Notes: generated by a model from the letters alone, not told the origin. A stretch of DNA of 62,860 bases, filler included, from a bacterium (GCA_030615855.1; 5 parts of 5 records of this genome joined end to end with filler, not necessarily neighbours in it), one strand, 5' to 3'; counted from the whole stretch's first letter, positions 12,977-61,853 are shown. Made by a program: numbers and translations.

Positions 12977-13142
12977 CTATCCTCACCATATAAGATACCC
13001 TAGCTATCATTCCCCTTATCTGGGGATTATCTTCTTTAATTACTGAGGAGCCTATCCTCTTCAAGCCCAGGGCCTTGATGGTCCTTCTGTGCCTCTCTTT
13101 CTTTCCGGCCAGGCTCCTGATCAATGTTATCCTTATCTTCAC
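12948..13142 (-). CDS. rpmD: 50S ribosomal protein L30
   Basis: GTG start, [34 protein letters not shown]; position in the spc operon. Confidence 0.93.
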
Positions 13143-13247
13143 CCCGCTCCTTTTGTTATTCACCCCGCACTTTTCCGCTACGAAAGGATACTTCAAATGT
13201 AAAAGGTGCGGGGTTCACTCTCGCTCCTCTTTGAGGGGTGGGGTTCA
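13138..13247. mobile_element. Two nested TIR elements at the rpsE/rpmD junction
   Basis: Outer ttcaccccgctcc...aggggtggggttca; inner ttcaccccgcactttt...aaaaggtgcggggttca (13159-13217). Confidence 0.7.
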
Positions 13248-13769
13248 AAGGATCTCCTCCTCTTTCTTACCCCGCCGGCGGGCAACTTCTTTAAGCTCCT
13301 TCAGCTGGGAGAGGGCAAGGAGGGTGGCCTTTACCATATTGTGGGGATTGGAGCTTCCTAAAGATTTGGTCAGAATATCCTTTATCCCACAGGCCTCGAT
13401 CACCGCTCGCACCGGCCCTCCAGCAATCACCCCAGTGCCCAACGAAGCAGGACGAAGGAGAACTTTTCCCGCCCCGAACTTTCCTATGATTCTATGGGTA
13501 ATGGTCCTTCCCTTCATGGGAACAGTGATCATATTCTTCTCCGCTCTATCATGGGCCTTCCTAATGGCCTCTGGAACATCATGGGCCTTGCCCTTTGCTA
13601 CCCCCACCTTTCCCTTTCCATCGCCCACTACTACTAAGGCAGAGAAGGAGAACCTCTTTCCTCCTTTAACCACCTTAGAGACCCGGTTGATGGAGACCAC
13701 CCTCTCAATCAGCTCCTCTTCTTTCTTCCCTTCGATCCTCTTTTCTAATTTCTTCCTCACCCGTTCCAT
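13245..13769 (-). CDS. rpsE: 30S ribosomal protein S5
   Basis: [32 protein letters not shown]. Confidence 0.98.
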
Positions 13770-13820
13770 TATTCTATATCCCTCTTCTTAGTATTCGCGA
13801 TGATTCGCGTCTTTGCGTCT

Positions 13821-14183
13821 TCAGAACTTAAGTCCCCCTTTACGTGCTCCTTCTGCTAAGGCCTTCACCCTTCCATGGTAGAGATATCCTCCTCGATCAA
13901 AAGCCACCTTTTCTATTTTCTTGGCAAGTGCCTTCTGAGCAAGAAGTTCTCCCACGGCATAAGCACTCTTTATGTTCCCACCCCTTTTAATCCTATCTCT
14001 TATCTCTTTAGAGAGGCTAGAGGCAGCAACCAATGTCTCACCCTTAAGGTCATCTATGATCTGGGCGTAGATGTGGTTGAGGCTACGAAAGACAACCAGG
14101 CGTGGCCTCTTGAGAGTGCCCAAGATCCTCTTTCTTACTCTCTTATGCCTTCTCTCTCTGGCCAGTTCTTTTTTTACAACCAT
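13821..14183 (-). CDS. rplR: 50S ribosomal protein L18
   Basis: [29 protein letters not shown]. Confidence 0.98.
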
Positions 14184-14202
14184 ACCCTACTCTCTCTAAA
14201 AA

Positions 14203-14246
14203 AATTCGCGTCAATTCGTGTCTTTTAATTCGCGTTGATTCGCGTC
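14203..14246. repeat. (attcgcgt) tandem array
   Basis: Same unit at 13793-13820 and 50372-50434, each next to a stop codon. Confidence 0.7.
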
Positions 14247-14801
14247 TTAAGTTCCTACCGGTCCAGTGACCGCTGCCTTCCCTACCTTGCGTTTTATATA
14301 CTCCCCTTTATACCTGATCCCCTTTCCCTTATAGGGTTCGGGTGGCTTGAGGGCCCGGATGTTAGAGGTGACCTCACCAACAAGCCCCTTATCCCCGCCC
14401 GAGACAATAATCTGGGTTCCCTTCTCCACCTTTATCCCTATTCCCTTGGGAATAGGGAACTCTACGGGATGAGAGAGACCCAAGGATAGCATGAGCTTAT
14501 CACCCTTTAGATTAGCCTTATAGCCCACCCCGATAATCTCCAGGGATTTAGAAAAGCCTTCGTTCACCCCTTTGATCATATTGGCCAGGAGGGAGCGGGA
14601 GAGGCCGTGGAGAGATTTATGGGGTTTTGCACTGGAAGGCCTCTTAATTATGATCTCCTTCTCTTTTACCTCTACCTTTATTTCAGAAGGGATCTTCCTT
14701 GTTAACTTTCCTTTCGGGCCCTCCACAGTAAAGGTATTACCTTCTATCTGGACTTTCACCCCTTCTGGTACAATAATGGGTCTTTCTCCAACTCTCGACA
14801 T
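14247..14801 (-). CDS. rplF: 50S ribosomal protein L6
   Basis: MSRVGERPI, PPEPYKGKGIRY. Confidence 0.98.
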   Translation of the reverse strand: MSRVGERPIIVPEGVKVQIEGNTFTVEGPKGKLTRKIPSEIKVEVKEKEIIIKRPSSAKPHKSLHGLSRSLLANMIKGVNEGFSKSLEIIGVGYKANLKGDKLMLSLGLSHPVEFPIPKGIGIKVEKGTQIIVSGGDKGLVGEVTSNIRALKPPEPYKGKGIRYKGEYIKRKVGKAAVTGPVGT

Positions 14802-14854
14802 CTCGCTTTCCCTTCAAACGCTGATTACCGCTGATAATCTGCGGTCATCTGCGT

Positions 14855-15253
14855 TTACCAAATGTGGCAGATAACCTCTCCCCCAATCCTTCTCTTCCTA
14901 GCCTCCTTATCCGTCATTATTCCCTGAGAAGTGGAGAGTATGGCTACGCCCAATCCGCCCAAGACCCTGGGAACCTCACTCGCCTTGGCGTAGTGTTTCA
15001 GGCTGGGCTTGCTAATCCTCTTTATACCACTAATTACCTTTTCCTTCTTTGAGGTGTACTTGAGATAGATCCTCAGTATCCCCTGCCTTCTATCCGAGAT
15101 CACCCTAAAGTTCTTAATATAACCTTCCTCTTTTAGGATTCTGGCGATCTCCTGTTTCATCTTTGAAGAAGGGATATCCACCCTATCCTTCTTTGCCTGA
15201 TTGGCATTTCTGATCCTGGTGAGCATCTCAGCAATTGGGTCAGTTACCGTCAT
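14855..15253 (-). CDS. rpsH: 30S ribosomal protein S8
   Basis: [25 protein letters not shown]. Confidence 0.98.
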
Positions 15254-15280
15254 TTTTAAAAACCTCGCTTTACTCGGTTT

Positions 15281-15346
15281 TAGTTCGGAGCACGCTCGGC
15301 TTTGCCTCGCTTGAGTTCGGTGTTTTTTGTCTCCGAACTCCGAACT
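15281..15346. repeat. Inverted (agttcgg)/(ccgaact) array with internal insert
   Basis: Second copy at 32920-33010. Confidence 0.75.
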
Positions 15347-15369
15347 GAGATATCTGCAGTCATCTGTGG

Positions 15370-15555
15370 TTACCAGCTAGACTTGGTCACTCCCGGGATT
15401 TGGCCTTCACTGGCCAACTTCCTGAAACATATCCTGCAGATCTTGAACTTCCTCATATAGCCCCTTCTCCTCCCACAGATCTGACATCTATTATATGTCC
15501 TTGTCTTATACTTTGGCTTTCTCTTCTGCTTTGCTATCCAGGACTTTTTAGCCAT
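15370..15555 (-). CDS. rpsZ: 30S ribosomal protein S14, zinc-binding type Z
   Basis: RCQICGR...[16 protein letters not shown]. Confidence 0.96.
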
Positions 15556-16106
15556 CATTCACTCCTCTCGCGTTTAAGGGGGAAGCCGAAGGCGGAGAGG
15601 AGTTCCCTTGCCTCCTCATTCGATTCCGCAGTAGTTACAATAGTAATATCCATGCCATGGATGAGGGGTACCTTATCATAGTCTATCTCTGGAAATACGA
15701 TCTGTTCCGTTATCCCTATGGTATAATTCCCCTTCCCATCGAAGGAGTCAGGAGAGAGACCCTTAAAGTCCCTTATCCTGGGTAGGGCGACATTTATGAG
15801 CCTATCCAGGAATTCGTACATCCTCTCTCTTCTCAGAGTCACCTTACAGCCGATCTTCACTCCTTTCCTCAGTTTGAAGGAGGCGATGGCTCTCCTTGCC
15901 TTGGTGATGAGCGGTCTTTGGCCCGTAATCTGGGCCAGTTCGTCTACTGCGGCATCCAATAATTTGGAATCGCTTAGGGCCTTTCCCATACCAACGTTGA
16001 TCACCATCTTCTCTATCCTGGGAACCTGATAGAGGTTGGTGTAATTGAACCTCTTCATCAGAAGGGGCACAATCTCTTTTTGATATCTCTCCTTCAATCT
16101 AGCCAT
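15555..16106 (-). CDS. rplE: 50S ribosomal protein L5
   Basis: [16 protein letters not shown] and [10 protein letters not shown]; start trimmed to MARLKE. Confidence 0.98.
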
Positions 16107-16199
16107 AAATCCTCGTTTACTGTTGAGCGGCACGTTTTACTTGCCCCGCTGATGAATAACTATTATTCAATTTGCCCGCTCCTCACCTTGTTCGTCGCT

Positions 16200-16251
16200 G
16201 TTTACCGTTTACGGTAAAAAATATTATACCGTAAACCGTTAACCGTAAACC
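16200..16251. repeat. Inverted (gtttacc)/(ccgtaaa) heptamer array
   Basis: Same unit family at 9191-9231, 22067-22089 and 29656-29696. Confidence 0.75.
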
Positions 16252-16267
16252 TTTGCTAACTAATATC

Positions 16268-16594
16268 TCATTCCTTATCTATGGTCTCCCCGCATTTCTT
16301 ACAGACCCTCAATTTCTTTCCCTTCTCCACTACTTTATAATATCCTATCCTGGTAGGCTGATTACATCTGGGGCAGATGAGCATAACGTTTGAGATGGCT
16401 AAAGGAGCCTCCTTCTCTATGATCCCAGAGGGCTTTCCTTCGCCCCTTGGCTTAGTATGCCTCTTAATGAAGTTAAGGCCTTGAACAAGCACCCTCTCCT
16501 CCTTGGGAAAGAGGCCCAGGACCTTCCCTTCCTTCCTCCGCTCTTTCCCAGCGATGATCCTTACCTTGTCTCCCTTTCTTATCTTAAAACCCAT
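16268..16594 (-). CDS. rplX: 50S ribosomal protein L24
   Basis: IRKGDKVRIIAGK, EAPLAISNVM. Confidence 0.97.
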   Translation of the reverse strand: MGFKIRKGDKVRIIAGKERRKEGKVLGLFPKEERVLVQGLNFIKRHTKPRGEGKPSGIIEKEAPLAISNVMLICPRCNQPTRIGYYKVVEKGKKLRVCKKCGETIDKE

Positions 16595-16614
16595 TGTTCA
16601 CTCCGTTCGCATTT

Positions 16615-16980
16615 TCAGACGACCTCTGGAGCAAGAGAGATTAGTTTAGCAAACTTCTCCTTCAGCTCACTGGCTACTGGCCCGAATATTCTGGTCCCCA
16701 GTAGCTCCCCCTGGGCAGTGACCAAAACGCAGGCGTTCTCATCAAACTTTATATAGGAGCCATTCTCTCTTCTGGCCTCCTTCTTCATTCGCACGATAAC
16801 CGCCCGTACCACAGACCCCTTCTTTATCTCACTGGTGGGAATGGCCTCCTTGACGCTAGCCACGATAATATCCCCTAGCCGGCCATATCTTCTCTTGCTC
16901 CCACCCAGGACCCTGATACACATGACCCTTCTCACCCCAGTGTTATCCGCAACCTCTAGGACAGTTCTCTCTTGAATCAT
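16615..16980 (-). CDS. rplN: 50S ribosomal protein L14
   Basis: [23 protein letters not shown] and SLAPEV; start trimmed. Confidence 0.98.
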
Positions 16981-17000
16981 CTCTCCTCGCTTTGCTCGGA

Positions 17001-17262
17001 AGTTATCAGTTAATAGTAAAAATAAGATCCAATAACCAATGACCAATAACCAAACAATAACCAATGACCAATAACCAATCACCAAACTGTTTTGTCCGAC
17101 CACCTATGGTGGACGGATTGAATTTGGATATTGGAATTTGTTTGACCAATGCTTAATTATTTATGCTCTCTCCAATGCCAGCGAAGCGCATTGGGTATTG
17201 TATCTTGTATCTTGGTGTTTAATCACTAGAATTTCGGAACTATAAACTGGTTACTGGTTACT
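17001..17262. repeat. Nested inverted heptamer arrays with two hairpin inserts
   Basis: (ccaatra)n left arm, (ttgga..)/(atcttgt) right arm, outer agtt../ctggtta units. Confidence 0.85.
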
Positions 17263-17277
17263 TTAAAATATACTTTC

Positions 17278-17520
17278 TTACTTGGCCTTTTCTAATATCT
17301 TGGCTACCCGCCATCTCTTATCCTTGGAGAAGGGTCGGGCCTCGACAATCTCTACCCTATCCCCAATCCGGCACTCATTCTTCGGGTCATGAGCCTTGAA
17401 GCGCTTGGCGCGCTTTATTACCTTACCATAGAGGGGGTGGCGAAATGTTCTTTCCACTCGGACCACTACCGTCTTATCCATCCTGTTACTAACTACTCTT
17501 CCCACTCTCACCTTTCTCAC
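17278..17520 (-). CDS. rpsQ: 30S ribosomal protein S17
   Basis: [20 protein letters not shown] and RPFSKDKRW. Confidence 0.97.
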
Positions 17521-17717: not shown

Positions 17718-17718
17718 A

Positions 17719-18126: not shown

Positions 18127-18132
18127 AATTAC

Positions 18133-18771: not shown

Positions 18772-18793
18772 AATAACCCTCGCTACGCTCTGT

Positions 18794-19214: not shown

Positions 19215-19221
19215 TCCTGCC

Positions 19222-22650: not shown

Positions 22651-22750
22651 NNNNNNNNNNNNNNNNNNNNNNNNNNNNNNNNNNNNNNNNNNNNTTAATT
22701 AATTAANNNNNNNNNNNNNNNNNNNNNNNNNNNNNNNNNNNNNNNNNNNN
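22651..22750. other. Artificial contig spacer (also 27547-27646, 52859-52958, 60378-60477)
   Basis: 44 N + TTAATTAATTAA + 44 N; genes are truncated on both sides. Confidence 0.98.
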
Positions 22751-27546: not shown

Positions 27547-27646
27547 NNNNNNNNNNNNNNNNNNNNNNNNNNNNNNNNNNNNNNNNNNNNTTAATTAATT
27601 AANNNNNNNNNNNNNNNNNNNNNNNNNNNNNNNNNNNNNNNNNNNN

Positions 27647-29354: not shown

Positions 29355-29421
29355 CAGTGATCGGTGATCAGTGATCGGTTAAATCTCTTTTACTGTTCAC
29401 AGTTCACAGTTCACGGTTCAC
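29355..29421. repeat. Inverted heptamer array (gtgatcr)/(gttcaca)
   Basis: cagtgatcggtgatcagtgatcgg...ctgttcacagttcacagttcacgg. Confidence 0.8.
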
Positions 29422-29440
29422 ACTTAAGTGCTTATAGCCC

Positions 29441-29638
29441 TTATCCGTAGGGAATTAATCTCCTGATATTTTTCACATCGGCCTTATGAATGAGACCCGA
29501 TTTCTTAAGGCTTCTCTTTCTCTTGGCGCTCTTCTTAGTCAGGATATGGCTCTTAAAGGCCTTCTTTCTCTTAATCTTCCCCTTCTTGGTTAACCTGAAC
29601 CTCTTGGCTGCTCCTCTTTTGGTCTTTATCTTAGGCAT
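29441..29638 (-). CDS. rpmI: 50S ribosomal protein L35
   Basis: [22 protein letters not shown]. Confidence 0.97.
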
Positions 29639-29717
29639 TCTAACCTCACTTTGTTCGGTTCGTTTACCGTTAACCGTTCACCGTGAACCGTAAACCAAAA
29701 GTGCACATTGCACTTCC

Positions 29718-32586: not shown

Positions 32587-32663
32587 TGGTGGGCGGTACT
32601 GGATTTGAACCAGTGACCTCCTGCGTGTCGAGCAGGCACTCTAACCAACTGAGCTAACCGCCC
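32587..32663 (-). tRNA. tRNA-Val(GAC)
   Basis: GGGCGGTTAGCTCAG...CCTGC-TCGACAC-GCAGG...GGTTCAAATCC...CCA. Confidence 0.95.
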
Positions 32664-32667
32664 ATAG

Positions 32668-32754
32668 TGCCGAGGGCCGGAGTCGAACCGGCACGCCCTT
32701 TAAAAGGACAAGGGATTTTAAGTCCCTTGCGTCTACCAATTCCGCCACCCCGGC
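32668..32754 (-). tRNA. tRNA-Leu(TAA)
   Basis: GCCGGGGTGGCGGAATTGGTAGAC, AGGGA-CTTAAAA-TCCCT, long variable arm; CCA not encoded. Confidence 0.95.
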
Positions 32755-32756
32755 AT

Positions 32757-32832
32757 TGGAGGCGCGGGTCGGACTCGAACCGACGAATCGCGGTTTTGCA
32801 GACCGCTCCCTTAGCCCCTTGGGTACCGCGCC
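32757..32832 (-). tRNA. tRNA-Cys(GCA)
   Basis: GCGGT-CTGCAAA-ACCGC anticodon arm, T arm and CCA. Confidence 0.95.
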
Positions 32833-32836
32833 CTAT

Positions 32837-32912
32837 TGGAGCGGGCGATGGGTTTCGAACCCACGACCTCAACCTTGGCAAGGTTGCGTTCTACCAACTG
32901 AACTACGCCCGC
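32837..32912 (-). tRNA. tRNA-Gly(GCC)
   Basis: CAACC-TTGCCAA-GGTTG anticodon arm and CCA. Confidence 0.95.
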
Positions 32913-33023
32913 CTAACTACAGTTCGGAGTACGCCCCGATTTCATCGGGGCTTGAGTTCGGAGTTAGGTGTATTGTTTTTCCAAACTCCGAACTATTAAC
33001 TCCGAACTAAATTATCTGTGTTA

Positions 33024-33110
33024 TGGTGCGGACGAGAGGATTCGAACCTCCACGAGATAACTCCCACTAGCCCCTCAAGCTAGCGCGTCTACCAATTCCG
33101 CCACGTCCGC
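33024..33110 (-). tRNA. tRNA-Leu(GAG)
   Basis: CTAGC-TTGAGGG-GCTAG anticodon arm, long variable arm and CCA. Confidence 0.95.
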
Positions 33111-35802: not shown

Positions 35803-35980
35803 TACGTTAAAAGGTTGCGCAACTCGTTTTCAGATTATCAGAACATCAGACTATCAGAATGAGAATTCAGGAATCAGATTTCAGATTCAATCTGACCTTC
35901 TGATAACTGACCCTCTCCATCTGATACTCTGGTAATCTGATATTCTAATTATATGAGCAGCGTAACCGCAACCGAATGAC
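35803..35980. repeat. Composite element: conserved frame enclosing (atcaga)/(tctgat) octamer arrays
   Basis: Ends match 10946-11208; inner units match 49660-49800. Confidence 0.75.
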
Positions 35981-35996: not shown

Positions 35997-36025
35997 ATAA
36001 TATCATATTTTCAAAGATAAGTCAA
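35997..36025 (-). promoter_or_regulatory. Sigma70 promoter for gap-pgk-secG
   Basis: TTGACT-17 nt-TATTAT with extended TG. Confidence 0.6.
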
Positions 36026-36744
36026 ATTTTTGAGGTGGTCCGGGCTAAAGTGAGGACTGTTACCTCCTTTGTTCCGGCAGTAAGTAGGACTTTGCTGCAT
36101 TCGTCTACCGTGGCTGCAGTAGTACATATATCGTCAATGAGAAGAATCCTTCTATTCCGAACCCCTTCTTCCTCTTTCACCATAAAGGCACCTCTGACAT
36201 TCTTCCTCCTCTCTTCGGGATTCAAGTTGCTCATGCTTTTGGTATCCCTTATTCTTAATAGGTTTCCATTCGAGACAGAAAGAGAGAAATGCTTACCAAT
36301 TATCTGGGCAAAGGCCTCTGCCTGATTGAATTCCCTCTCTTTCTTCTTGCTCCTGAAGAGAGGAACAGGGAGGATGAGGTCAAAGTCGCTCATCTTTAGA
36401 TTCCTCTGGCAATACTTTAGGAGTAATTCCCCCAGAGGTGGAATGAGGGCCTTTACCCTTTCATACTTGAGAAGCAGAATGGCCTCCCTCAGTACTTCCT
36501 GATAGATGCCCATAGAATATATACTTTTAAAGTAACGTTTCTCTTTTTGGCAATCCTTACAGATCCTATTTTCAAAAGGTCTTAAAGGTCGGCCGCATTT
36601 GAGGCAACGGGGCCCTTCAATGAATCTAATCTTAGCAAAGCATTCTGAACAGATATAAGTGAGATTCCCTGCTTCTAAAGTTTTCTTGCAGATTCTGCAT
36701 TCCAGAGGAAAGATTAAACTTAAAAGAGTTTTGATAAGGTTCAT
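36022..36744 (-). CDS. ComF family protein (zinc ribbon plus PRTase)
   Basis: CxxC pairs, PVPL..KKEREFNQA, LLIDDICTTAAT. Confidence 0.92.
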   Translation of the reverse strand: MNLIKTLLSLIFPLECRICKKTLEAGNLTYICSECFAKIRFIEGPRCLKCGRPLRPFENRICKDCQKEKRYFKSIYSMGIYQEVLREAILLLKYERVKALIPPLGELLLKYCQRNLKMSDFDLILPVPLFRSKKKEREFNQAEAFAQIIGKHFSLSVSNGNLLRIRDTKSMSNLNPEERRKNVRGAFMVKEEEGVRNRRILLIDDICTTAATVDECSKVLLTAGTKEVTVLTLARTTSKI

Positions 36745-36752: not shown

Positions 36753-36824
36753 TTTACCCCGTCCTCATTCGAAAATCAAGTCATTATTCTGTGAATTTTT
36801 ACAAAAATGGGGGCGGGGTTTACC
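36753..36824. mobile_element. Short TIR element
   Basis: accccgtcctcatt...aatgggggcggggt with tttacc repeated at both ends. Confidence 0.6.
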
Positions 36825-42861: not shown

Positions 42862-43602
42862 CTACACCTCTTTTCTGTAATCTAAATCTGCTTCTTTTAA
42901 GGATTCCAGGCTTCCGATATCATACCACTTCTCTTTGAAGACAAAACCGTAGACCTCTTCCCTCTTGGCCAACCATTGGATATAGAAACCAGGAGCATCC
43001 TTTCTCCTTTCTTCTTCTAGATATTTATTGATGGATGGGAGGTCCTCTTTGGGGAAGAGATAGAGGCAGGTAGCGATGAGAGTAGAGGTAGGATGGGAAG
43101 GCTTCTCCTCAAATTTGACGATTCTCTGATTCTCATCTACCGTTACCACCCCATAATTCCTGGCCTTCTCTTTATCTCTGATATCATAAAGAGCGATACA
43201 GGGGGCCTTCTTCTTTTCAAAGGATTTAATAAACCTTGAGAGGTCGAATTGGAAGAGGTTATCTCCAGCAACGATTAGAAGGTCATCATCGATCTTCTCT
43301 TCCTCCAGAAAAAATCTAATATCCCCAATGGCTCCCAGTTTATCATCATCACATGTTGAACCATCGTTTAGGGTCTTTACTCTCTTCTTCATTTGGAAGT
43401 TGGCAAACCAGTTCTGGAAGTCCAGGATGAACTTCTGGTTGGTTACCAGATAGATAGCATCGATCTCTTCTACTCTTTCCAGTTTCCCCATAATGTATTC
43501 TAAGATGGGCTTGCCTGCGATGGGCAGAAGGGGCTTTGGTCTATCCTTAGTCAGAGGATAGAGCCTGGTAGCATAACCTGCAGCCAGGATAAGGGCTTTC
43601 AT
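42862..43602 (-). CDS. Sugar-phosphate nucleotidyltransferase
   Basis: [23 protein letters not shown] and WYDIG. Confidence 0.9.
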
Positions 43603-44654
43603 CCCTTGGCCAGCTCTTTCTTGAAATAGTCGATAGCCTCAACTGGGGTGGGGTCTATTCTGTTGAGGATAGCGAGGTAATAACTCACCCAATCCCCGAG
43701 ATAGATGAGAGAGAAGAGGCGGGCGAGAAGGCTTTTTCCTTGAGAATAGAGGAAGTCCAGGCCATGTGCCTTTCTCCTGATAATCTTAGAAGTAATCTCT
43801 ATCCTCTTCTTTATTCTGGGAGAATCATACCTATCCCGCAGGATGATGAGATAGCACCTCTTAAGGATTTCTGGCAGACATTTCCAGCCAACAATCTCAT
43901 TGTGGCTTAATTCGGGGAAGGTATTGGAGAAGGCTAAGACCTTGCTATTCTCAGATAGCTGTCCCTTCCAGCGCAGACCAACCGGGGAGAGGATGGGAGA
44001 GGTATAGATTAGAGGGAGATTCTTATGTAATTTAAGGGCTATTCTCTTCGCCTGATTGGAACCCACTTTTGATGAGAGAGAAAACTTTCTTTTCAAATCC
44101 TTGAGCAACCGAAGGGTCTCCTGGCATTCCCGCTTCTTACTTTTAACTAGTCCCAGGCGCTCTAAGCTGATAAGTAAGGAGAAGAAGAGATAGCCTAAAG
44201 AGGCCCGGGGAGGAAGCCCAGAGGGTATAGAGACTACCGGAACCCCGTCTCTCTTGGCTAATCTGCCCAATCTTCCTCCGGTAGTGATGGCTATCATCTT
44301 CGCCTTCTTCTTTGCTGCCTCTCGATAGGCAGAGAGGGTTTCTTCTGTATTCCCCGAGTAACTGACAGAGGAGACCAGGGTTTTAGAGTCGACGAACTCT
44401 GGAAGGGAGTAATTCTTGTTGATCACCAAGGGGATTCTTAACTCTGGTTCTATCACGCTCTTCAATATCTCTCCCCCAATACCTGAGCCACCCATTCCAC
44501 AGACCAGAATCTTGTCAATCTTCTTGTATGAAGGAAGAGAAGATTGAAGGGCTATCTCAATTGCTCGGGAGCATTGATCAGGAAAATCAGCCAAAAGATA
44601 GGCCATATCTTTCTTATCATACTTCTCAAGATCTTTTAGGTTATCAAGGTTCAT
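43599..44654 (-). CDS. Bifunctional phosphoglucose/phosphomannose isomerase
   Basis: CGMGGSGIGG, SYSGNTEET, ENSK, PELSHNEI and DPTPV. Confidence 0.93.
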   Translation of the reverse strand: MNLDNLKDLEKYDKKDMAYLLADFPDQCSRAIEIALQSSLPSYKKIDKILVCGMGGSGIGGEILKSVIEPELRIPLVINKNYSLPEFVDSKTLVSSVSYSGNTEETLSAYREAAKKKAKMIAITTGGRLGRLAKRDGVPVVSIPSGLPPRASLGYLFFSLLISLERLGLVKSKKRECQETLRLLKDLKRKFSLSSKVGSNQAKRIALKLHKNLPLIYTSPILSPVGLRWKGQLSENSKVLAFSNTFPELSHNEIVGWKCLPEILKRCYLIILRDRYDSPRIKKRIEITSKIIRRKAHGLDFLYSQGKSLLARLFSLIYLGDWVSYYLAILNRIDPTPVEAIDYFKKELAKG

Positions 44655-44754
44655 CCCGCCCCTCCTTCTCTAAAATTATCAATGTATTTTTCCTATTTTT
44701 CATGTATTCTCACTTTTCCCATTAAACTAAATCGTATCGAGGGGCGGGATTCAT
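44650..44754. mobile_element. TIR element at the ptsI / pgi-pmi junction
   Basis: ttcatcccgcccctc...gaggggcgggattcat. Confidence 0.7.
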
Positions 44755-44757: not shown

Positions 44758-46503
44758 TTAAGTTACCGCTTCCGGCAAGATCTTCCTTGCCTTCTCTTTA
44801 AGGAGGGCTTCGATCTCTTGGGCAGTAGAAAGATTCAGAGCCTTTCTGGAGAGTTCTTCTGCCTCCTTTAGAGTGAGAGAGCGAACGACTTCTTTCACTT
44901 CAGGAATGACAATGGGGCTCATGCTTAATTCATCCAAACCTAGACCCAATAGGAGAGGAGTAAAGAGGGACTCTCCGGCCATCTCCCCACACATCCCCAC
45001 CCAAATCCCTGCCTTATGTGCCCCATCAATGATTCTCTTCAAGAGGTGCAGTACCGCAGGATGTAGGGGCTGATAGAGATAGGCGATGTTCTCATTCACC
45101 CTATCGATGGCTAAGGCGTACTGAATGAGATCGTTGGTTCCAATAGAAAAGAAGTCCACCTCTTTAGCAATGGATTCACAGGTGAGGGCCGCAGAGGGAA
45201 TCTCGATCATGGCTCCTACTTCTAAGTTTTTGTTAAAGGGAATTCCTTTCTTCTTAAGTTCTTCTTTAACTTCGCTCAATATCTGATTTGCTTTCTTCAC
45301 CTCCTCAACCCCGGAGATCATGGGATACATGACTTTTAAATCCCCATAGGGGCTGGCCCTTAGTATGGCCCGTAATTGATCCTTGAAGAGAGGGATATCT
45401 GCCAGGCAGAGCCTGATGGCCCTTAGGCCCAAGAAAGGGTTCATCTCTGGGGCGAGGTTGAGGTAGGATAAAAACTTATCTCCTCCCAGATCTAGGGTCC
45501 TGATGATTACTGGATGGGGAGAAAGCTTCTGGGCCACTTCCCTATAGGCCTTAAACTGCTCATCGATAGAGGGGAGATCATCCCTTCCCAGATGAAGAAA
45601 TTCTGTACGATATAGCCCGATCCCCTCTCCCCCGTGCTCCTTGACATATTTAATCTCATCCGGAACCTCAATATTTGCTGCTAAGATTATCCTATGGCCA
45701 TCGAGCGTTTGGGCCGGAAGGTCCTTTAACTTAACTAACTCATGCTCGAAGACCTCAAAGGACTCCTTATCTTTCCTATATCTCTTTAGAGTCTTTTTAT
45801 CTGGGGTTATAATCACCAACCCATGACTGCCATCCACAATCAGGGTATCAAGCGCCTGGGCTTCTTGAGTGATATTCTTCAATCCCACTACGGCCGGGAT
45901 CTCCAGAGCCCGGGCCATGATTGCCGTATGGGAGGTCTTGGTTCCCATATCTGTGGCAAATCCGATCACCTTCTCCTTGTGCATGGATACCGTATCAGAA
46001 GGGGAGAGGTCGTGGGCTACGACGATGACCTCTTCCTTCAGGGTGGCCAGAGTCTCCCTCTCCTTGCCCAGAAGGTTCCTCAATATCCTCCTTTCCACAT
46101 CCTTAATATCTACTGCCCTTCCTTTTAGGTAGGAGTCTTCCATGCTGCTGAAGGTCTCTCGGAAAGTCTCCAGGACCTGGGAAAGGATATACTCCACATT
46201 GATCAATTCCTCTTTCACCCCCTGAGTGACCTTCTTTATTAAATAGGGGTCTTTCAGGATCAAGAGGTGGGCATCAAAGATATAGGCCTCCTCCTTTCCC
46301 AATCTTTTAGCGACCTGGGCCCTTATCTCTTTGATCTCTTCCTCTGTTTTGGCCAGGGCTTCCTGGAAGCGTGAGATATTCTTAGAGACCATGTCTTTCC
46401 TGATGGGTCTCTTCTTTATCTCGAACTCCTCCTTATCCAGGAAGAAGACCTTTCCCACCATTACTCCGGGAGAAGCAGGAATCCCCTTCAACTCCTTCAT
46501 CAT
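44758..46503 (-). CDS. ptsI: PTS enzyme I
   Basis: TSHTAIMAR, IGLYRTEF, RTLDLGGDK, SIGTNDL and GMCGEMAG. Confidence 0.97.
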   Translation of the reverse strand: MMKELKGIPASPGVMVGKVFFLDKEEFEIKKRPIRKDMVSKNISRFQEALAKTEEEIKEIRAQVAKRLGKEEAYIFDAHLLILKDPYLIKKVTQGVKEELINVEYILSQVLETFRETFSSMEDSYLKGRAVDIKDVERRILRNLLGKERETLATLKEEVIVVAHDLSPSDTVSMHKEKVIGFATDMGTKTSHTAIMARALEIPAVVGLKNITQEAQALDTLIVDGSHGLVIITPDKKTLKRYRKDKESFEVFEHELVKLKDLPAQTLDGHRIILAANIEVPDEIKYVKEHGGEGIGLYRTEFLHLGRDDLPSIDEQFKAYREVAQKLSPHPVIIRTLDLGGDKFLSYLNLAPEMNPFLGLRAIRLCLADIPLFKDQLRAILRASPYGDLKVMYPMISGVEEVKKANQILSEVKEELKKKGIPFNKNLEVGAMIEIPSAALTCESIAKEVDFFSIGTNDLIQYALAIDRVNENIAYLYQPLHPAVLHLLKRIIDGAHKAGIWVGMCGEMAGESLFTPLLLGLGLDELSMSPIVIPEVKEVVRSLTLKEAEELSRKALNLSTAQEIEALLKEKARKILPEAVT

Positions 46504-47483: not shown

Positions 47484-48209
47484 TCACTCTAAGGTAAACT
47501 TCTCGCCAAGATAGATTTCTCTGGCCTCTTTACTATTCGCCAGTTCCTGAGAGGTACCAGAGATTAGAATTTCCCCTTCATACATAATATATGCTCGATC
47601 GGTGATGGCCAATGTTTCTCGCACGCTATGATCGGTAATCAAAACCCCGATCCCCTTCTTCTTGAGTTGAAAGATGATCTCCTGGATATCAGCAATGGCA
47701 ATGGGATCGATACCAGTAAAGGGCTCGTCCAGTAAAATGAAGGAAGGGGTAGTAACCAGAACTCTGGTGATCTCCACCCTTCTCCTCTCTCCGCCAGAGA
47801 GGGTATAGGCCTTGTTCTTGGCAAGGGGGGAGAGATTGAGTTCTGCCAAGAGCTCCTTCAGCCTCTTCCCCTTCTCTTCCTCTGTCAGATCCAGGGTCTC
47901 CAGGATGGCCAGGATATTTTCCTCAACAGTGAGCTTTCTGAAGATGGAGGGCTCCTGGGCAAGGTAACCGATCCCCTTTCTCGCCCTCTTATACATGGGG
48001 AGTCTGCTAAGATCGAAGTCGTCGATGAGTATCTGCCCCCGATTTGGCTTGACCAATCCCACGATCATATAGAAGGTGGTGGTCTTTCCTGCTCCATTGG
48101 GACCCAGAAGGCCAACGATCTCTCCCTCCCTTACCTCTAAGTTAACATCGTTTACCACTCTCCTTCTCTTGTAGCTTTTGACCAGGCCCTGGATCTTTAG
48201 GGTCTTCAC
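47484..48209 (-). CDS. lptB: LPS export ATPase LptB
   Basis: [24 protein letters not shown] and [11 protein letters not shown] start. Confidence 0.96.
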
Positions 48210-48366
48210 CCCACCCCTCCTTTTGTATTCAAAACAGCAACCACGGATTTCACAGATTTCCACGGATTAGTATTCTTTTTAAAAATCTGTTTAATCCGTC
48301 CAATCCGTGGTTTTATTAAAGTCTTCGAAGCTACAAGATTATCAATTCCGTGAGGGGCGGGGTTCA
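48205..48366. mobile_element. TIR element at the lptA/lptB junction with a nested array
   Basis: ttcaccccacccctc...gaggggcggggttca; inner (cacggat)/(atccgtg). Confidence 0.7.
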
Positions 48367-49559: not shown

Positions 49560-49844
49560 AATGCCTAATAATTAATAACCAAACTGAGAATCTCCAATTT
49601 CCAATTCCTAATTTCCAATAAAATTTTAAATGTCAAATGCCAAAAAAAGAAATAAGTAGATCAGAGAATCAGAATATCAGTAGGAAGGGTATCAGAAGAC
49701 CAGGGTATCAGGCTTTAAAGAAAGATTTTCTGATGTTCTGATATACTGCATTCAGGGCATCGCGAAGAATTTAGCCAGCTTGTCTGGCGTCTATCCTGAT
49801 ATACTTTTTGAATTGTTAGAAATTGGATATTAGATATTAGAAAT
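49560..49844. repeat. Nested inverted arrays
   Basis: Outer (tttccaa)/(ttagata) heptamers, inner (atcaga)/(ctgat) units. Confidence 0.75.
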
Positions 49845-52858: not shown

Positions 52859-52958
52859 NNNNNNNNNNNNNNNNNNNNNNNNNNNNNNNNNNNNNNNNNN
52901 NNTTAATTAATTAANNNNNNNNNNNNNNNNNNNNNNNNNNNNNNNNNNNNNNNNNNNN

Positions 52959-54536: not shown

Positions 54537-54813
54537 GTGGTATCATCTGGGGTTGATTATCTCTTTACTTTTAGCCGGGTTTCTATCTCCCTTTGCTTCC
54601 TCTCTTCCCGATGGCCTGGAAAAGGTGGCAGAGGATTTGGGTTTTATAGAAAAGGGGAAGGTTATCCTCTCCTCACCCCTGGCTGACTATCTCTTTCCCG
54701 GAATAGAGAGTGAGAGATTAGCTACCTCCTTAGCCGGAATAATCGGGGTATTATTAGTGTCTGGTTTGGCCTGGAAATTGGAGAGACTTCTTATTAAGGG
54801 AATAAAGGAATGA
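54526..54813 (+). CDS. PDGLE-domain protein (NikN/CbiN-like)
   Basis: ASSLPDGLEKVA, PLADY, two TM helices. Confidence 0.9.
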   Translation: MRLKWYHLGLIISLLLAGFLSPFASSLPDGLEKVAEDLGFIEKGKVILSSPLADYLFPGIESERLATSLAGIIGVLLVSGLAWKLERLLIKGIKE

Positions 54814-55063
54814 ATCCCGCCCCTCTTTCCTTAAACCGACAAAATAATTCTATAGAAAGTTCAAATATCTTTCTCGAGGTATCGGAATTTGAATAAATTC
54901 CGATACCGAGGATTAGAAGGTCTGGGGGAAAGAATCTGCTTACTCCCAGGGGGTGACAGGGAATTTTTCCGAACTATTGCAGGAAAAATTCCCGCCAGAG
55001 GGGCAAAGCCCCTATGGAAGTATTCCCGAAGGGGATATCTTGGGCAAGGAGGGGCGGGATGAA
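54810..55063. mobile_element. TIR element at the PDGLE / small-subunit junction with a hairpin-rich interior
   Basis: atgaatcccgcccctc...gaggggcgggatgaa. Confidence 0.72.
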
Positions 55064-57106: not shown

Positions 57107-58908
57107 ACGCGCTCCTTTATCCTATAGTTTTACCTTTGGTAGCTGGTACTATATCTTTTATCATCCCTAAAAAGCGAAAAGCTTATCTTTACCTGTTAGC
57201 CTTTGCCACATCCTTAGCCACCCTTCTGGTGGCTATTTATCTATTCATGAATCGACCATTATCCTGGCAACTGAATGACTTCACCATTTTAAGGGTGGAC
57301 AGTCTTTCCAGCTTCATACTGCTGGCCATCGCTCTCTTTGGTTTCCTCATCATCCTCTATTCCCTTCGCTATATGGGAGAGAAGCAGGGATTAAAAGTAT
57401 ATTATGCTAATCTATTATGGACCATTGGAGCGGCCTGCGGAGTAGTCCTATCAAATAATCTGATTCTTTTCTTAACATTTTGGGGATTCTTGGGGATTAC
57501 TCTATATCTTCTCATAAATCTTGGGGGGGAAGAAGCGGCTTATGCCGCGAAGAAGACCTTCATTATTATTGGCGGCTCAGACGCTTTAATACTCCTGGGC
57601 ATAGCAATCATCTGGCAACTTACCGGGTCTTTCCAGATGGACGGAATAAGTATATCTTTAAATGGAGGATTGCCCCTCCTGGCCTATCTCTCTTTGGCCA
57701 TAGGGGCCTTTGCCAAGGCAGGGGCCATGCCCTTTCACACCTGGATTCCTGATATGGCCGAGAGCGCACCGGTCTCAGTCACCGCATTCCTGCCGGCATC
57801 ATTGGATAAGTTGTTGGGTATCTATCTCTTGGCCAGGATCTCATTAAATCTCTTTATAATGAATAAGGCCCTGGGTTTGGTTTTATTAATAGTTGGGGCA
57901 GTAACCATTATTGCTGCAGTGATGATGGCCTTGATCCAGCACGACTTGAAGAGACTCCTCTCTTACCATGCAGTATCCCAAGTGGGTTATATGGTTTTAG
58001 GTATTGGAACAGGCAACCCGATAGGCATTGCTGGTGGTTTATTCCACATGTTGAATCATGCTATCTATAAAGGCTGTCTTTTCTTATGTGGTGGCGGCGT
58101 AGAACATCAAACAAGAACCTCGAACCTAAATAAATTGGGTGGATTAGCCAAGGCCATGCCCATTACCTTCGTTACCTGCCTAATAGCCGCCCTATCCATA
58201 TCTGGCATTCCTCCCTTCAATGGCTTCGTCTCCAAGTGGATGGTCTATCAGGGTGTGATTGAACTTGGGAAGACTGGGGATAGACTATGGGTTATATGGC
58301 TAATAGCCGCTATGTTTGGTTCTGCCTTGACTTTAGCCAGCTTTATGAAGTTAATTCACGCTATATTCTTAGGCCAACGAGCTAAAGAATTAGCAGGCAA
58401 ACGAATCACTGAAGTCCCCTGGACCATGTGGCTTCCTATGGTGATTTTAGCTGGTCTCTGCATTCTTTTTGGGGTATTCGCTATATCAGTGCCCCTAAGA
58501 CATTTTATCCTTCCTGCGGTAGAAGGCGTCTCATTCTTAGGGTTCTGGTCACCAGCCTTAGCCACCCTTTTGATCATCATAGGCATCATAATTGGGCTCA
58601 TTCTTTATGGTATAAGTAACTTGAGACTGAATTTAAGGAGGGACACCAGTTTTATCGGAGGGGAAGTAATCCCTGATGAATATCGAGTTAGCGGGGTTGA
58701 TTTCTATAATACGGTAAAGGAACTTTCACCCCTCAAAGGGATCTACAAAAAGGCAGAAGATAAATTCTTCGATATCTATGACCAAGGCAAAAGACTCACC
58801 CTCTTCTTTACCCGTCGACTTCAACATTTACATAGTGGGATACTTCCCACATATTTGGTCTGGTGCTTAGTGGGAATGCTCGTCCTATTCTTCGTTTTAA
58901 TGAGGTAA
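57103..58908 (+). CDS. Antiporter-like proton-pumping subunit (HyfB/MrpD/NuoL family)
   Basis: KAGAMPFHTWIP, KRLLSYHAVSQVGY, NHAIYK and GIPPFNGFVSK. Confidence 0.9.
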   Translation: MNALLYPIVLPLVAGTISFIIPKKRKAYLYLLAFATSLATLLVAIYLFMNRPLSWQLNDFTILRVDSLSSFILLAIALFGFLIILYSLRYMGEKQGLKVYYANLLWTIGAACGVVLSNNLILFLTFWGFLGITLYLLINLGGEEAAYAAKKTFIIIGGSDALILLGIAIIWQLTGSFQMDGISISLNGGLPLLAYLSLAIGAFAKAGAMPFHTWIPDMAESAPVSVTAFLPASLDKLLGIYLLARISLNLFIMNKALGLVLLIVGAVTIIAAVMMALIQHDLKRLLSYHAVSQVGYMVLGIGTGNPIGIAGGLFHMLNHAIYKGCLFLCGGGVEHQTRTSNLNKLGGLAKAMPITFVTCLIAALSISGIPPFNGFVSKWMVYQGVIELGKTGDRLWVIWLIAAMFGSALTLASFMKLIHAIFLGQRAKELAGKRITEVPWTMWLPMVILAGLCILFGVFAISVPLRHFILPAVEGVSFLGFWSPALATLLIIIGIIIGLILYGISNLRLNLRRDTSFIGGEVIPDEYRVSGVDFYNTVKELSPLKGIYKKAEDKFFDIYDQGKRLTLFFTRRLQHLHSGILPTYLVWCLVGMLVLFFVLMR

Positions 58909-58912
58909 CTAA

Positions 58913-59437
58913 ATGCTTGAACTGTATATCCTTTCATTGCTCATGATTATAGGTGCCATAATTGCCGTAGAGATTAAGGATCTATTATCCTCAGTCATTG
59001 CTGTAGGTGCCGTGGGATTAGTGCTATCAGTTACCTTCCTTATATTAAAGGCGCCAGATTTAGCCATTACTCAGTTAGTAGTAGAGCTTTTATGTCTAAT
59101 TATTTTGATTCAGGCAACAATTAAGAGAGGTATTCCGCGGGTTATAAGCAGACAGAGTTTTCTTACTATATTTGTGACCTTAACCTTTATTGGTCTATTT
59201 TTAGCATTTGCTTATTCTTCCTTAAGAGACCTACCCCAGTTTGGCCATCCCATAATGAGGGTGGCTAACCATTACTTAGAAGAGGGCTTAAATAAAACCG
59301 GAGCAACCAATCTGGTGGCTTCAGTGATCTTAGATTTTCGTGCTTATGACACCTTGGGTGAGGCAACAGTACTCTTTACCGCAGTGATTGGAGTCCTGGC
59401 AGTTTTGAGAAAAATCGGAAGGAAGAAAACCCCATGA
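58913..59437 (+). CDS. MbhD/MbhE-like (DUF4040 plus MrpA C-terminal) subunit
   Basis: APDLAITQ, NLVASVILDFRAYDTLGE. Confidence 0.88.
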   Translation: MLELYILSLLMIIGAIIAVEIKDLLSSVIAVGAVGLVLSVTFLILKAPDLAITQLVVELLCLIILIQATIKRGIPRVISRQSFLTIFVTLTFIGLFLAFAYSSLRDLPQFGHPIMRVANHYLEEGLNKTGATNLVASVILDFRAYDTLGEATVLFTAVIGVLAVLRKIGRKKTP

Positions 59438-59901
59438 GACAAAAAAATCTGCGTAATCAGCGATCAGGAATGACACTAATTGTAAAGACAATTACCCGTC
59501 TAACCATCGGACTAATTCTTTTGTTCGGCATCTATATCGTCCTGCACGGACATATTACACCCGGGGGTGGCTTTGCTGGAGGAGTAATTATCGCTTTATC
59601 CTTTATTCATCTGATGCTTGCTTTTGGAAAGGATCTGGCTCTGAAGAAGTTAAGCGAGGTTCAGGCTTCTTTCTTTGAGAGCCTGGGTGCCATTATGTTT
59701 TTGACTATTGCTATTCTGGGTTTTGTGGGTGGATACTTCTTCCTCAATTTCTTCTCAGATAAAGGAGAGCCCTTTAGACTCTTTAGCGCCGGGATTATTC
59801 CTTTATGTAATGTCGCCATATGTTTTAAGGTGGGAGCGGGATTATTTGCCATCTTTGCAGCTCTGGTCTTCCTAAAGATAGGTTCAGGAGAGGAGAAATG
59901 A
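59434..59901 (+). CDS. MrpB/MnhB (MbhF-like) subunit (start possibly 59470)
   Basis: HGHITPGGGFAGG. Confidence 0.9.
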   Translation: MRQKNLRNQRSGMTLIVKTITRLTIGLILLFGIYIVLHGHITPGGGFAGGVIIALSFIHLMLAFGKDLALKKLSEVQASFFESLGAIMFLTIAILGFVGGYFFLNFFSDKGEPFRLFSAGIIPLCNVAICFKVGAGLFAIFAALVFLKIGSGEEK

Positions 59902-60236
59902 TAATCTACTTCATGTGCCTGATTCTTTTCTGTGTTGGTCTATACGCTATTTTGGTAAAGAGGAACCTCATTAAGATTATCATTGGCATAATAATAACCG
60001 AATATGCAGTTAACTTATTCTTTATCTTAGTTGCCTACCGCTCGAAAGGTCGGGCACCGATATTAGCACCAGATCAGATAGTCAAGAATATGGTCGATCC
60101 CCTGCCTCAAGCGCTGGTCTTAACTGCCATTGTTATCGGCCTGGCCGTGACTGCCTTGATAGTCTCCATTGCGGTAAGAGTCTATGAAAAATATGGTACT
60201 TTTGATATTACCAAAATTAGGAGATTAAAAGGATGA
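59898..60236 (+). CDS. MrpC/MnhC (MbhG-like) subunit
   Basis: RNLIKIIIG, DPLPQALVLTAIVIG. Confidence 0.92.
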   Translation: MIIYFMCLILFCVGLYAILVKRNLIKIIIGIIITEYAVNLFFILVAYRSKGRAPILAPDQIVKNMVDPLPQALVLTAIVIGLAVTALIVSIAVRVYEKYGTFDITKIRRLKG

Positions 60237-60377
60237 ACCTATTGCCCCTCTTCGTGGCTATACCATTGGGTACTGCATTTCTGGTCTCTCTTTTTGGAAA
60301 AAGAGTAAAGAATTTTTCTGATTCTTTATCCAATTTAGCCACCCTTTCCTTACTTCTCCTTTCTTTATTTTCCATAT
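60233..60377 (+). CDS. Probable MrpD/MbhH subunit, 5' fragment
   Basis: Hydrophobic start LLPLFVAIPL..AF, coupled to mrpC; truncated by the gap. Confidence 0.6.
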
Positions 60378-60477
60378 NNNNNNNNNNNNNNNNNNNNNNN
60401 NNNNNNNNNNNNNNNNNNNNNTTAATTAATTAANNNNNNNNNNNNNNNNNNNNNNNNNNNNNNNNNNNNNNNNNNNN

Positions 60478-61738
60478 TAGGAATGAGGCATCTCTTAAAG
60501 CCCAGCTTCTCTGCCTCCCTTATCCTTAAAGGTACCCGGTTGATACTGCGCACCTCCCCGCTTAAGCCCACCTCGCCCAAAGCAACCAGATTGGGATCGA
60601 TGGCCTTATTCTTAAGACTGGAGGCCACAGCCAATATCATAGAGAGATCCACCGCTGGTTCATAAACCCTCAATCCCCCAGCAACATTTAGAAAGACATC
60701 CTTATTCCCCAGTTTCAATCCCGCCCTCTTCTCCAAGACGGCTAATAAAAGGGAGGCACGGTTATAGTCCAGTCCAGTCGTCCTTCTCTGGGGTAAGGCG
60801 AAACTGGAGGGACTCACCAGGGCCTGGATCTCAACCAAGAGGGGCCTGGTTCCTTCCAAGGTGGCGGTGATGCAGGAGCCAGAGGCGCCTTCTGCCCTCT
60901 CCTCTAAGAGGATCCTTGAAGGATTCCTCACCTCAGCCAAGCCATCTTCTTTCATCTCAAAGATTCCCACCTCATTCGTGGAGCCAAACCTATTCTTCAC
61001 TGCCCTCAGGATTCTATAGGTATACTCTTTTTCTCCCTCAAAGTATAAGACAGTATCAACCATATGCTCTAAGACCTTGGGACCAGCTAAGACTCCTCCC
61101 TTAGTCACATGGCCGATCAAGAAGATAGGGATATTCATGCTCTTTGCTAAATAGAGAAGCTCGGCACAAGACTCCTTTAACTGTATGATGCTTCCCGGGG
61201 TAAAGGGAAGATCCGATTTATAGACCGCCTGAATGGAATCGACAACCACAGATCTTGGCTTTAAGTCCTCAATATATTTCGTAGTCTCCTCAATGCTCGT
61301 GGTGGCTAAGATATGAAGTCTGGAAGAGTTTACTCCTATCCTCTGGGCCCTGAGCTTCGTCTGGGTGAGTGATTCTTCACCCGAGGCATAGAGGACCAGA
61401 CCGGATTTACTGCTCAGGTTATTCATGGCCTGAAGAAGGAGGGTGGACTTCCCGATCCCCGGGTCCCCACCGATTAAGACTACTGAGCCCGGAACTAATC
61501 CCCCTCCCAAGACCCTATCGAACTCCCCCATCCCGGTTTTTAGCCTCCCCTCCTCATCCATCTTAATCTCTGATATTGCCTGGGGCTTGGCCTTCGTCTT
61601 AAATACCCGATGCTTGAACTTGGAGGGTGGGGCCTCTTTCGTCTCAGTGAAGGTATTCCAACTTCCACATCCCGGGCACCTCCCCAGCCACTTTATAGAT
61701 TCATAGCCACACTCTGCACAGAAATACTTCGTCTTCAC
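60478..61738 (-). CDS. radA: DNA repair protein RadA/Sms (3' truncated)
   Basis: CAECG...CPGC, GGDPGIGKSTLL and KNRFG. Confidence 0.97.
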
Positions 61739-61853
61739 CCCGCACCTTTTTTAATAAAATTTTGTATTCTACTTGGCAAGACAAATAAAAAGCTTCTCAT
61801 TTCCCTATTTCCAAAAGATAAATTATAGAACATGGTAAAAGGTGCGGGGTTCA
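61734..61853. mobile_element. TIR element at the mlaD/radA junction
   Basis: ttcaccccgcacctttt...aaaaggtgcggggttca. Confidence 0.75.

Follow-up and report, generated by a model that had tools for sequence, protein, structure and literature searches.

Several kinds of short repeat in bacterial genomes invite comparison with the elements described here. MITEs (miniature transposable elements with inverted repeats), such as the Correia elements of Neisseria, RUP, and MITEAba12, derive from DDE insertion sequences, share interiors, and are not known to aim at start codons. Mycobacterial interspersed repetitive units (MIRUs) are direct repeats that often occur in tandem; they are not known to end in inverted repeats, and we know of no enzyme that has been linked to them. 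In the parts of the published account that we draw on, MIRUs are described as apparently mobile repeats that insert at start codons and that couple an internal open reading frame (ORF) to the host gene with a spacing of -4 nt, an arrangement that is thought to minimize harm (Brown and Wade 2025, PMC12548453). The Ssn enzymes, in turn, are single-domain GIY-YIG nucleases of about 94 amino acids (CDD family cd10448); hairpin repeats (NTS/SRM), which are also present in hundreds of copies, lie on either side of their genes, and cleavage of single-stranded DNA by these enzymes falls a few nucleotides upstream of the hairpin (Chenal et al. 2025, PMC11893778). Here we report on six short inverted-repeat inserts, two of them nested, in a 62,860-nt stretch of DNA from an uncultured Omnitrophota bacterium (GCA_030615855.1); the whole stretch is called the window.

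In the sections of PMC11893778 that we draw on, the authors noted that the NTS-ssnA-NTS unit resembles an insertion sequence, suggested domestication, and proposed a role in controlling transformation; mobility of the Ssn units was only hypothesized. Neither a target site nor its duplication was reported in those sections, nor were empty sites or placement on start codons, and the terms "start codon," "intergenic," and "Omnitroph" each had 0 occurrences in the text. A literature search that left most subscription journals and supplements outside its scope returned no publication on GIY-YIG mini-elements at start codons and nothing relevant on GIY-YIG or MITE elements directed at start codons or ATGA, on UPF0213/YhbQ/COG2827, or on repeats of Omnitrophota. 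We consider it likely that the six inserts derive, as MITE-like copies without genes, from a very small Omnitrophota mobile element that carries a GIY-YIG nuclease of about 100 amino acids.

Six inverted-repeat elements in the window

The window consists of five contigs that were joined artificially, with N runs around TTAATTAATTAA linkers at 22651-22750, 27547-27646, 52859-52958, and 60378-60477; therefore, distances between loci on different contigs mean nothing. Every YCCCRC and GYGGGR word was listed with its context. The six elements had the mRNA-strand form TGAA-YCCCRCNCCT...AGGNGYGGGR-TGAA, and TGAA was found on both flanks in 6/6. Their positions were as follows.

13138..13247, minus strand: E1 outer, between rpsE (S5, stop TGA 13245-13247) and rpmD (L30, GTG 13140-13142)
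13159..13217, minus strand: E1 inner, 51-nt core nested at GTGAA within E1 outer, arms CCCCGCACCTTTT / AAAAGTGCGGGG
44650..44753, minus strand: E5, 96-nt core on the ATG of a PGI-SIS gene (43599-44654)
48205..48366, minus strand: E2, 154-nt core between lptA (stop TGA 48364-48366) and an lptB-type ABC ATPase gene (GTG 48207-48209)
54811..55063, plus strand: E3, 245-nt core between a PDGLE gene (stop TGA 54811-54813) and a gene for an Oxidored_q6 NuoB-like small subunit (ATG 55059)
61734..61853, minus strand: E4, 112-nt core between mlaD (stop TGA 61851-61853) and radA (GTG 61736-61738)

A sequence-only reading of the window had proposed this terminal inverted-repeat architecture, and we found it at all five loci cited there. 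We also scanned the window blind to the motif, for TGAA followed by a 9-nt arm and, 20 to 450 nt away, by the reverse-complement arm and TGAA, with at most one mismatch. The scan returned 6 pairs, all with YCCCGC arms and all at element loci, compared with a mean of 0.1 and a maximum of 1 pair in 50 block shuffles. When all 256 tetramers were tried as the flank, TTCA gave 5, TGAA gave 1, and every other tetramer gave at most 2.

In five of the six elements, the arms were 12 to 17 nt long and showed 0 or 1 mismatch over 9 nt. The outer E1 element had degenerate arms (CCCCACCCCTC / GGAGCGGGG, with TGAA on each side). Near-identical ends of 13 to 17 nt, together with the same TGAA flanks, were present at unrelated loci in the window, where the flanking gene pairs by Pfam were S5/L30, LptA/LptB-type ABC ATPase, PDGLE/Oxidored_q6 (NuoB-like), MlaD/RadA, and PtsI/PGI-SIS. 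E1 inner, whose ends match those of E4, was the only window copy that was not placed on a start codon. In the case of E5, the upstream gene ptsI (a PEP-utilising enzyme) stops with TAA at 44758-44760, 6 nt before the element, and the right arm reads AAGGAGGGGCGGG-ATG.

Placement at start codons

At the five primary sites in the window, the right RTG opened the downstream gene in every case (frames of 64 to 420 codons), and the left TGA was the stop of the upstream gene in four (frames of 107 to 217 codons), with E5 as the exception. E1 outer, for example, lies between an upstream frame of 180 codons and a downstream frame of 64 codons, and its right arm provides AAGGAG as well as the G of the rpmD GTG start. 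These frames and the Pfam matches bore out what had been claimed for rpsE/rpmD, lptA/lptB, PDGLE/small subunit, and mlaD/radA, namely, that the left TGA is a stop and the right RTG a start, and also that the element at 44650 sits on the start of pgi, there the ATG of the PGI-SIS gene. At the RTGA overlap sites, the left TGAA preserves the stop of the upstream gene. The element ends in G or A, and this last base serves as the R of the downstream start codon, which thereby becomes GTG or ATG. Gene callers mis-set starts at the elements: when the longest ORF sets the start, L30, LptB, and the NuoB-like gene extend into them.

When copies from a second Omnitrophota genome (G286, see below) were counted with those of the window, the right end opened a long gene in 11/11 (frames of 64 to 486 codons), and the left TGA ended a frame of at least 100 codons in 7/11. 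Because all of the right ends opened genes and only seven of the left TGAs ended them, the common target is a start codon, RTGAA, which is often, but not always, part of an RTGA stop/start overlap. The earlier proposal that the family targets translational-coupling sites needs correction on this point. In the TCCCA subfamily described below, right ends opened frames of at least 33 codons in 17/17.

Four unoccupied RTGAA overlaps were present in the window, beside the five occupied starts. Outside the elements, the window held 576 TGAA/TTCA sites, of which 467 were fully coding, 87 were non-coding, and 22 touched gene ends. With 22 of the 109 not-fully-coding sites touching gene ends, our own arithmetic gave about 3e-4 for five out of five falling there, a figure that assumes that all non-coding and gene-end sites are equally tolerated. 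As judged from their anatomy, these elements would be harmless where they insert, as had been suggested.

Empty sites in relatives

The window junction between lptA and lptB reads GGAATGAA, 154 nt, and TGAAGACC. A metagenome search with LptA yielded three close relatives (L130, L131, and L132). In L132 (LptA 80% identical), the junction was GGAATGAAAACC, a plain ATGA overlap with no element, and in L131 (84% identical) it was GAGAAGTGAAGACC, a plain GTGA overlap with no element; relatives with such plain overlaps were what the sequence-only reading had proposed to look for. L130 (93% identical) kept the right end (AAAAGGAGGGGCGGGG-TGAAGACC) around a different interior, and its left end was replaced in a way that altered the LptA C-terminus, as in a partly decayed copy.

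Contigs of four other sediment metagenomes were aligned to the window. A contig from run X6 (record 29, 2558 nt), which represents a closely related strain, joined window position 44652 directly to 44753 at ptsI/pgi; it was missing exactly 100 nt, which equals the 96-nt core of E5 plus one TGAA. A second X6 contig tracked the window only 29 nt into the right end of E2. The empty sites at lptA/lptB (L131 and L132) and ptsI/pgi (X6) each kept exactly one TGAA. Because relatives have empty sites and one copy in E1 is nested in another, the six elements are discrete insertions, flanked by one extra TGAA, rather than structures that evolved in place.

Two further loci, L096 (minus strand, 1499-1967) and L043 (5-276), carried two elements in tandem or nested on one start codon, sharing a flank. 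Occupied sites can therefore be targeted again, as in E1 of the window. The PtsI-to-PGI junction was also surveyed in a genome collection made up of distant relatives only (PtsI identity of at most 61%), so that these junctions show architecture only. Among 42 junctions there were 5 RTGA overlaps, 5 other overlaps, 24 gaps of at most 30 nt, 1 gap of 31 to 60 nt, and 6 gaps of more than 60 nt.

Full-length units that carry a nuclease gene

Omnitrophota loci fetched by PtsI contained short elements with TGA-TCCCACCNCC ends. ORF-less copies with such ends were found in genomes G001 to G005, and G001, the one among them examined for a full-length unit, also contains one (L088/L093). In one of the PtsI-locus genomes, a 327-nt unit with ends of the TGA-TCCCACCNCC type had as its sole ORF a 110-aa GIY-YIG protein; this ORF opens on the ATGA at which the upstream transporter gene ends and closes on the ATGA with which the next gene begins. 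Homologues of this protein occurred in 289 of 401 sampled Omnitrophota genomes. The best seven homologue loci, from six genomes, were all units of 323 to 340 nt with the ends RTGA-TCCCAYCMCC...TGGGA-TGA, and the ORF ran from the left xTG to the right TGA in 6/7.

A pattern built on the window ends, TGAAYCCCGCNCCT-N{290,320}-AGGNGCGGGRTGAA, matched in 1 of the 401 genomes, at G286:C20:16360-16694. This unit is 335 nt long, has the form TGAA-CCCCGCACCTTCTT...AGAAGGTGCGGGG-TGAA, and contains only one ORF, a GIY-YIG protein of about 100 amino acids that starts on the ATG of the host gene. Thus, long members with an ORF, which the sequence-only reading had proposed to search for, exist in other Omnitrophota genomes, and this one has the same ends. 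G286 has six left ends: one belongs to the full-length unit, three to clean short copies (58 to 96 nt), and two to copies with decayed right ends. Each of the six comes after aaaTGAA or taaTGAA and runs on into a long gene. With every left end accounted for, no larger element with window-type ends was found in G286. The G286 copies have about 25 nt beyond the arms in common with the full-length unit.

The nuclease ORFs of these relatives, which are not proteins of the window, matched PF01541 with E-values of 2e-16 (G286 unit, L123 ORF) and 8e-15 (L088 ORF) and contained no other domain. The GIY, YIG, Arg, His, and Glu core positions were kept in 9/9 nuclease ORFs. An NCBIfam search returned nothing above the cut-off and no family name, and the nearest PDB chains were the UPF0213 proteins 1zg2 and 1ywl. 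The nine nuclease-bearing units of 290 to 340 nt have no space for a second gene, and their ends are translated as part of the nuclease ORF (MNPAP or MIPPP at the start, ...G and the stop at the end). In the full-length relatives, the nuclease ORF begins on the original ATG of the host and ends on or just before the right TGA. As judged from these sequences, the full-length form would be a unit of about 325 to 340 bp in which two inverted ends of 12 to 20 nt enclose one single-domain GIY-YIG ORF of about 100 amino acids.

A unit in another genome, at locus L105, whose arm (CCCCGCACCTTTG) is almost that of the window elements, had TGGTAG flanks and lay on the 7-nt nuoK/nuoL overlap (ATGGTAG), with the downstream start changed to GTG. 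Flank repeats therefore come from the target, with a length that varies between 3, 4, and 6 nt.

The core proposal of the sequence-only reading, a non-autonomous mobile family on stop/start junctions, was supported. The part that placed the enzyme elsewhere agreed with the absence of an enzyme from the window; the enzyme, which was seen only in relatives, is a GIY-YIG protein of about 100 amino acids and not a classical transposase.

Left-end-like sequences with no right end were observed at L071 11735 (ATGA-CCCCGCCCCTGC) and L042 20833 (ATGA-TCCCACCACCTGC), where they read as host N-termini (PGI MTPPLL... and response regulator MIPPPAPA..., respectively). They could be fossil element ends that were adopted as N-termini or chance matches in GC-rich DNA.

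Predicted mRNA folds, relay frames, and interiors

The right arms of E1, E2, E3, and E5 contained a Shine-Dalgarno (SD) sequence, GGAG or GGAGG, 4 to 6 nt before the RTG. The claim that the G-rich right end reads as a Shine-Dalgarno held for these four elements; E4 has only the weak AAGGTG. The left arm starts 1 nt after the upstream stop codon. In the predicted mRNA folds, the arm stem was closed in 6/6 elements, and the SD and start codon were paired with the left arm.

A frame that opens on the left xTG and reaches the right TGA, which we call a relay frame, was present in two of the five primary copies (E2 and E4; not E1, E3, or E5). It runs from the left ATGA to the right GTGA in both and spans 53 codons in E2 and 39 codons in E4. 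In the TCCCA subfamily, a relay frame reached the right TGA in 8/10 ORF-less copies, and the length was 3n+2 in 9/10. These counts point to selection for a relay ORF where the SD of the arm is weak. No Pfam match was found for the relay frames inside the elements, and an Rfam scan of the window returned only 5 tRNAs, with no RNA family match on the elements.

The interior of E2 is a hairpin built of AATCCGTGG-like words, and that of E3 is a mosaic of four or five small local hairpins. At the place of E2, the relative L130 had a different word array. Inverted arrays of 7- to 9-nt words (GTTCACGG, TACCGTTTAC, and TCAGA-type) were also seen in the window spacers at 29402-29695, 16200-16243, 35830-35940, and 49690-49743, and the same kind of short words fills the interior of E2.

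Proposed mode of movement and of coupling

We propose that a nuclease made elsewhere in the genome recognizes the ends and mobilizes both the full-length and the gene-less forms, perhaps on single-stranded DNA, the substrate of Ssn enzymes, and aided by host repair functions. By inserting at a start codon, the promoter-less nuclease gene would gain the ribosome-binding site of the host gene, and the right end of the element would repay the host gene with a new one. In the mRNA, pairing of the arms would conceal the new SD and start. A ribosome that terminates at the left TGA would cover the left arm, melt the stem, and free the SD; in some copies, a relay ORF ending on the right TGA would deliver ribosomes instead, and translational coupling may survive either way. 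Interiors would diverge because only the ends, and most of all the right arm in its new role as the ribosome-binding site of the downstream gene, are constrained, and because short-word repeats turn over fast inside.

A wider reading, which we take seriously without favoring it, is that the units of about 330 bp are autonomous transposons of bacteria that form a class of their own and are smaller than any known. The Ssn-like GIY-YIG nuclease of about 100 amino acids would be the one protein that they encode; they would be start-codon specific, would borrow the ribosome-binding site of the host and return an SD and a start base, and would move via host repair or replication and by chemistry that is new to transposition. 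In that case, the Ssn/SRM systems reported in 2025 would themselves be, at root, mobile elements of this kind. The empty sites, the nested copy, and the nuclease-bearing and gene-less forms with the same ends provide comparative evidence that units of the Ssn type, a GIY-YIG gene plus repeats, move. Start-codon insertion with a new ribosome-binding site would also offer selfish DNA a route into essential operons, including a ribosomal-protein operon, without breakage. A start-codon-specific insertion device of about 330 bp is a possible tool if its mechanism can be worked out.

Comparison with described systems

The closest published system is Ssn/SRM. In both, a single-domain GIY-YIG gene for about 94 to 110 amino acids is flanked on both sides by inverted repeats, which form hairpins in Ssn, gene-less copies are scattered, and the repeats have a G/C-rich core, ATTCCCGCG...GCGGGAAT in Ssn and YCCCGCNCC...GGNGCGGGR here. 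Unlike the elements described here, the repeats in the parts of PMC11893778 that we draw on are local hairpins of 20 to 50 nt and not element-spanning terminal repeats. In Omnitrophota, the nuclease genes were flanked by inverted ends, and local hairpins were found only in short copies (L022 and the G286 copies).

The closest analogue in function is the MIRU. MIRUs resemble the window elements in their start-codon placement (5/5 primary copies here), and a relay ORF on the right RTGA was found in only 2/5. The Omnitrophota elements differ: they are single units whose ends are inverted, they bring a new SD, and their full-length form carries a nuclease. The stem melting proposed above is the RNA-unfolding model of translational coupling, as reviewed in the part of PMC12548453 that we draw on.

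Like bacterial MITEs, the elements are short, gene-less, and multicopy, end in inverted repeats next to a short target duplication, and can provide a neighboring gene with expression signals; unlike them, they have unrelated interiors and a GIY-YIG nuclease as the partner gene. The REP/BIME repeats with their RAYT enzymes (IS200/IS605-type Y1) are similar in that a small nuclease gene is flanked by its own hairpin repeats, which are multiplied genome-wide (PMC11893778, in part), and single-stranded hairpin recognition is plausible. In contrast, RAYT enzymes have the HUH fold and not GIY-YIG, and REPs lie after genes, without target duplication or start-codon placement. The Omnitrophota units did not fit the IS200/IS605-REP/RAYT type because they have inverted ends and flank repeats and their only ORF is GIY-YIG.

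Alternative explanations

Several observations weigh against a small GIY-YIG element as the source of the inserts. The window contained no GIY-YIG gene or remnant when a profile was compared with its six-frame translation (best E-value, 4.3). The interiors of the window elements gave local alignment scores equal to those of shuffled sequence, in line with the earlier claim that they are unrelated, and this is unusual for a MITE family. The flank repeats differ among subfamilies (TGA, TGAA, and, at L105, TGGTAG), and the L102, L104, L106, L112, and L118 units have unlike flanks. The empty-site comparison covers two of the five occupied junctions, lptA/lptB and ptsI/pgi. At rpsE/rpmD, S5 was followed by L15 (N-terminus ...GSGHGKT) at 30/30 sampled Omnitrophota loci (L133-L162), where tblastn found no L30 beside S5; the window lineage has L30 (12948-13769), so the S5/L30 junction is not comparable for an empty site. 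The stem-melting step was inferred from fold prediction only. We know of no transposition or strand-transfer chemistry for a lone hydrolytic GIY-YIG domain. Finally, SsnA is described as cutting a few nucleotides upstream of its hairpin, in a variable flank and not at a fixed element boundary (PMC11893778, in part).

The hairpins might instead be SD/anti-SD stems that the host evolved in place to tune translational coupling and that never moved. The two arms do amount to an SD (GGAGG) and the sequence complementary to it, SD and start are covered by the predicted stems in 6/6, and in both L130 and the X6 strain the right arm was kept and the left arm decayed, as expected of a functional right arm. 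Stems of this origin would not be expected to share near-identical 13- to 17-nt ends and TGAA flanks at unrelated loci, to nest one in another, or to have the same ends as the nuclease unit of G286. This explanation is contradicted by the clean presence and absence in relatives, with exactly one TGAA at the empty site; we rejected it, and we regard it as scarcely credible.

DDE elements are characterized by terminal inverted repeats together with a short target duplication, and the missing strand-transfer chemistry noted above, together with the demonstration of cleavage only in the parts of PMC11893778 that we draw on, would fit MITEs of a conventional transposase family, such as a DDE insertion sequence, in which the GIY-YIG ORF is a passenger or a homing endonuclease. 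We judge this unlikely: nine nuclease units leave no room for another gene, their ORF is built into the ends, and each of the six left ends in G286 is part of either a short copy or the nuclease unit, although these genomes were not systematically searched for transposases with matching ends. Spread by homing, in which the nuclease cuts an empty allele and repair copies the element from an occupied homologue, as with the free-standing GIY-YIG genes of phages, would draw on a classical activity of GIY-YIG enzymes and would agree with one locus being occupied in some strains and empty in others, as seen here. New loci cannot arise by homing, yet the same ends and flanks occur at non-homologous loci within one genome (5 in the window and 6 in G286), and one copy is nested in another; we regard this route as quite improbable.

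Other inverted repeats and features of the window

Two further inverted repeats, at 2329 and 36753, had been described as variants with TTTACC repeats. Both exist, and their positions were as follows.

2330-2406, minus strand: TTTAC-flanked inverted-repeat unit of 67 nt, arms CCCGTTAGAAGT / ACTTCTAACGAGG, TTTAC on both sides
36753..36822, no strand assigned: aberrant relative with a 62-nt core, arms CCCCGTCCTCAT / ATGGGGGCGGGG (related CCCCGY arm), and TTTA flanks

The unit at 2330-2406 lies inside an N-terminal reading frame, starting 7 nt past the GTGA overlap at 2413-2416. If GTG 2416 is the true start, the unit and one TTTAC, 72 nt in all, lengthen the downstream ORF in frame by 24 codons following codon 5. 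The unit has exactly the same left end, TTTACCCCGT, as the element at 36753. The latter occupies a divergent spacer and is 13 nt upstream from the ATG of the gene at 36022-36744 (minus strand). These TTTAC- and TTTA-flanked items are a different or aberrant set and are not typical of the TGAA family. A tRNA cluster (Val-GAC, Leu-TAA, Cys-GCA, Gly-GCC, and Leu-GAG) was located at 32587-33110 on the minus strand.

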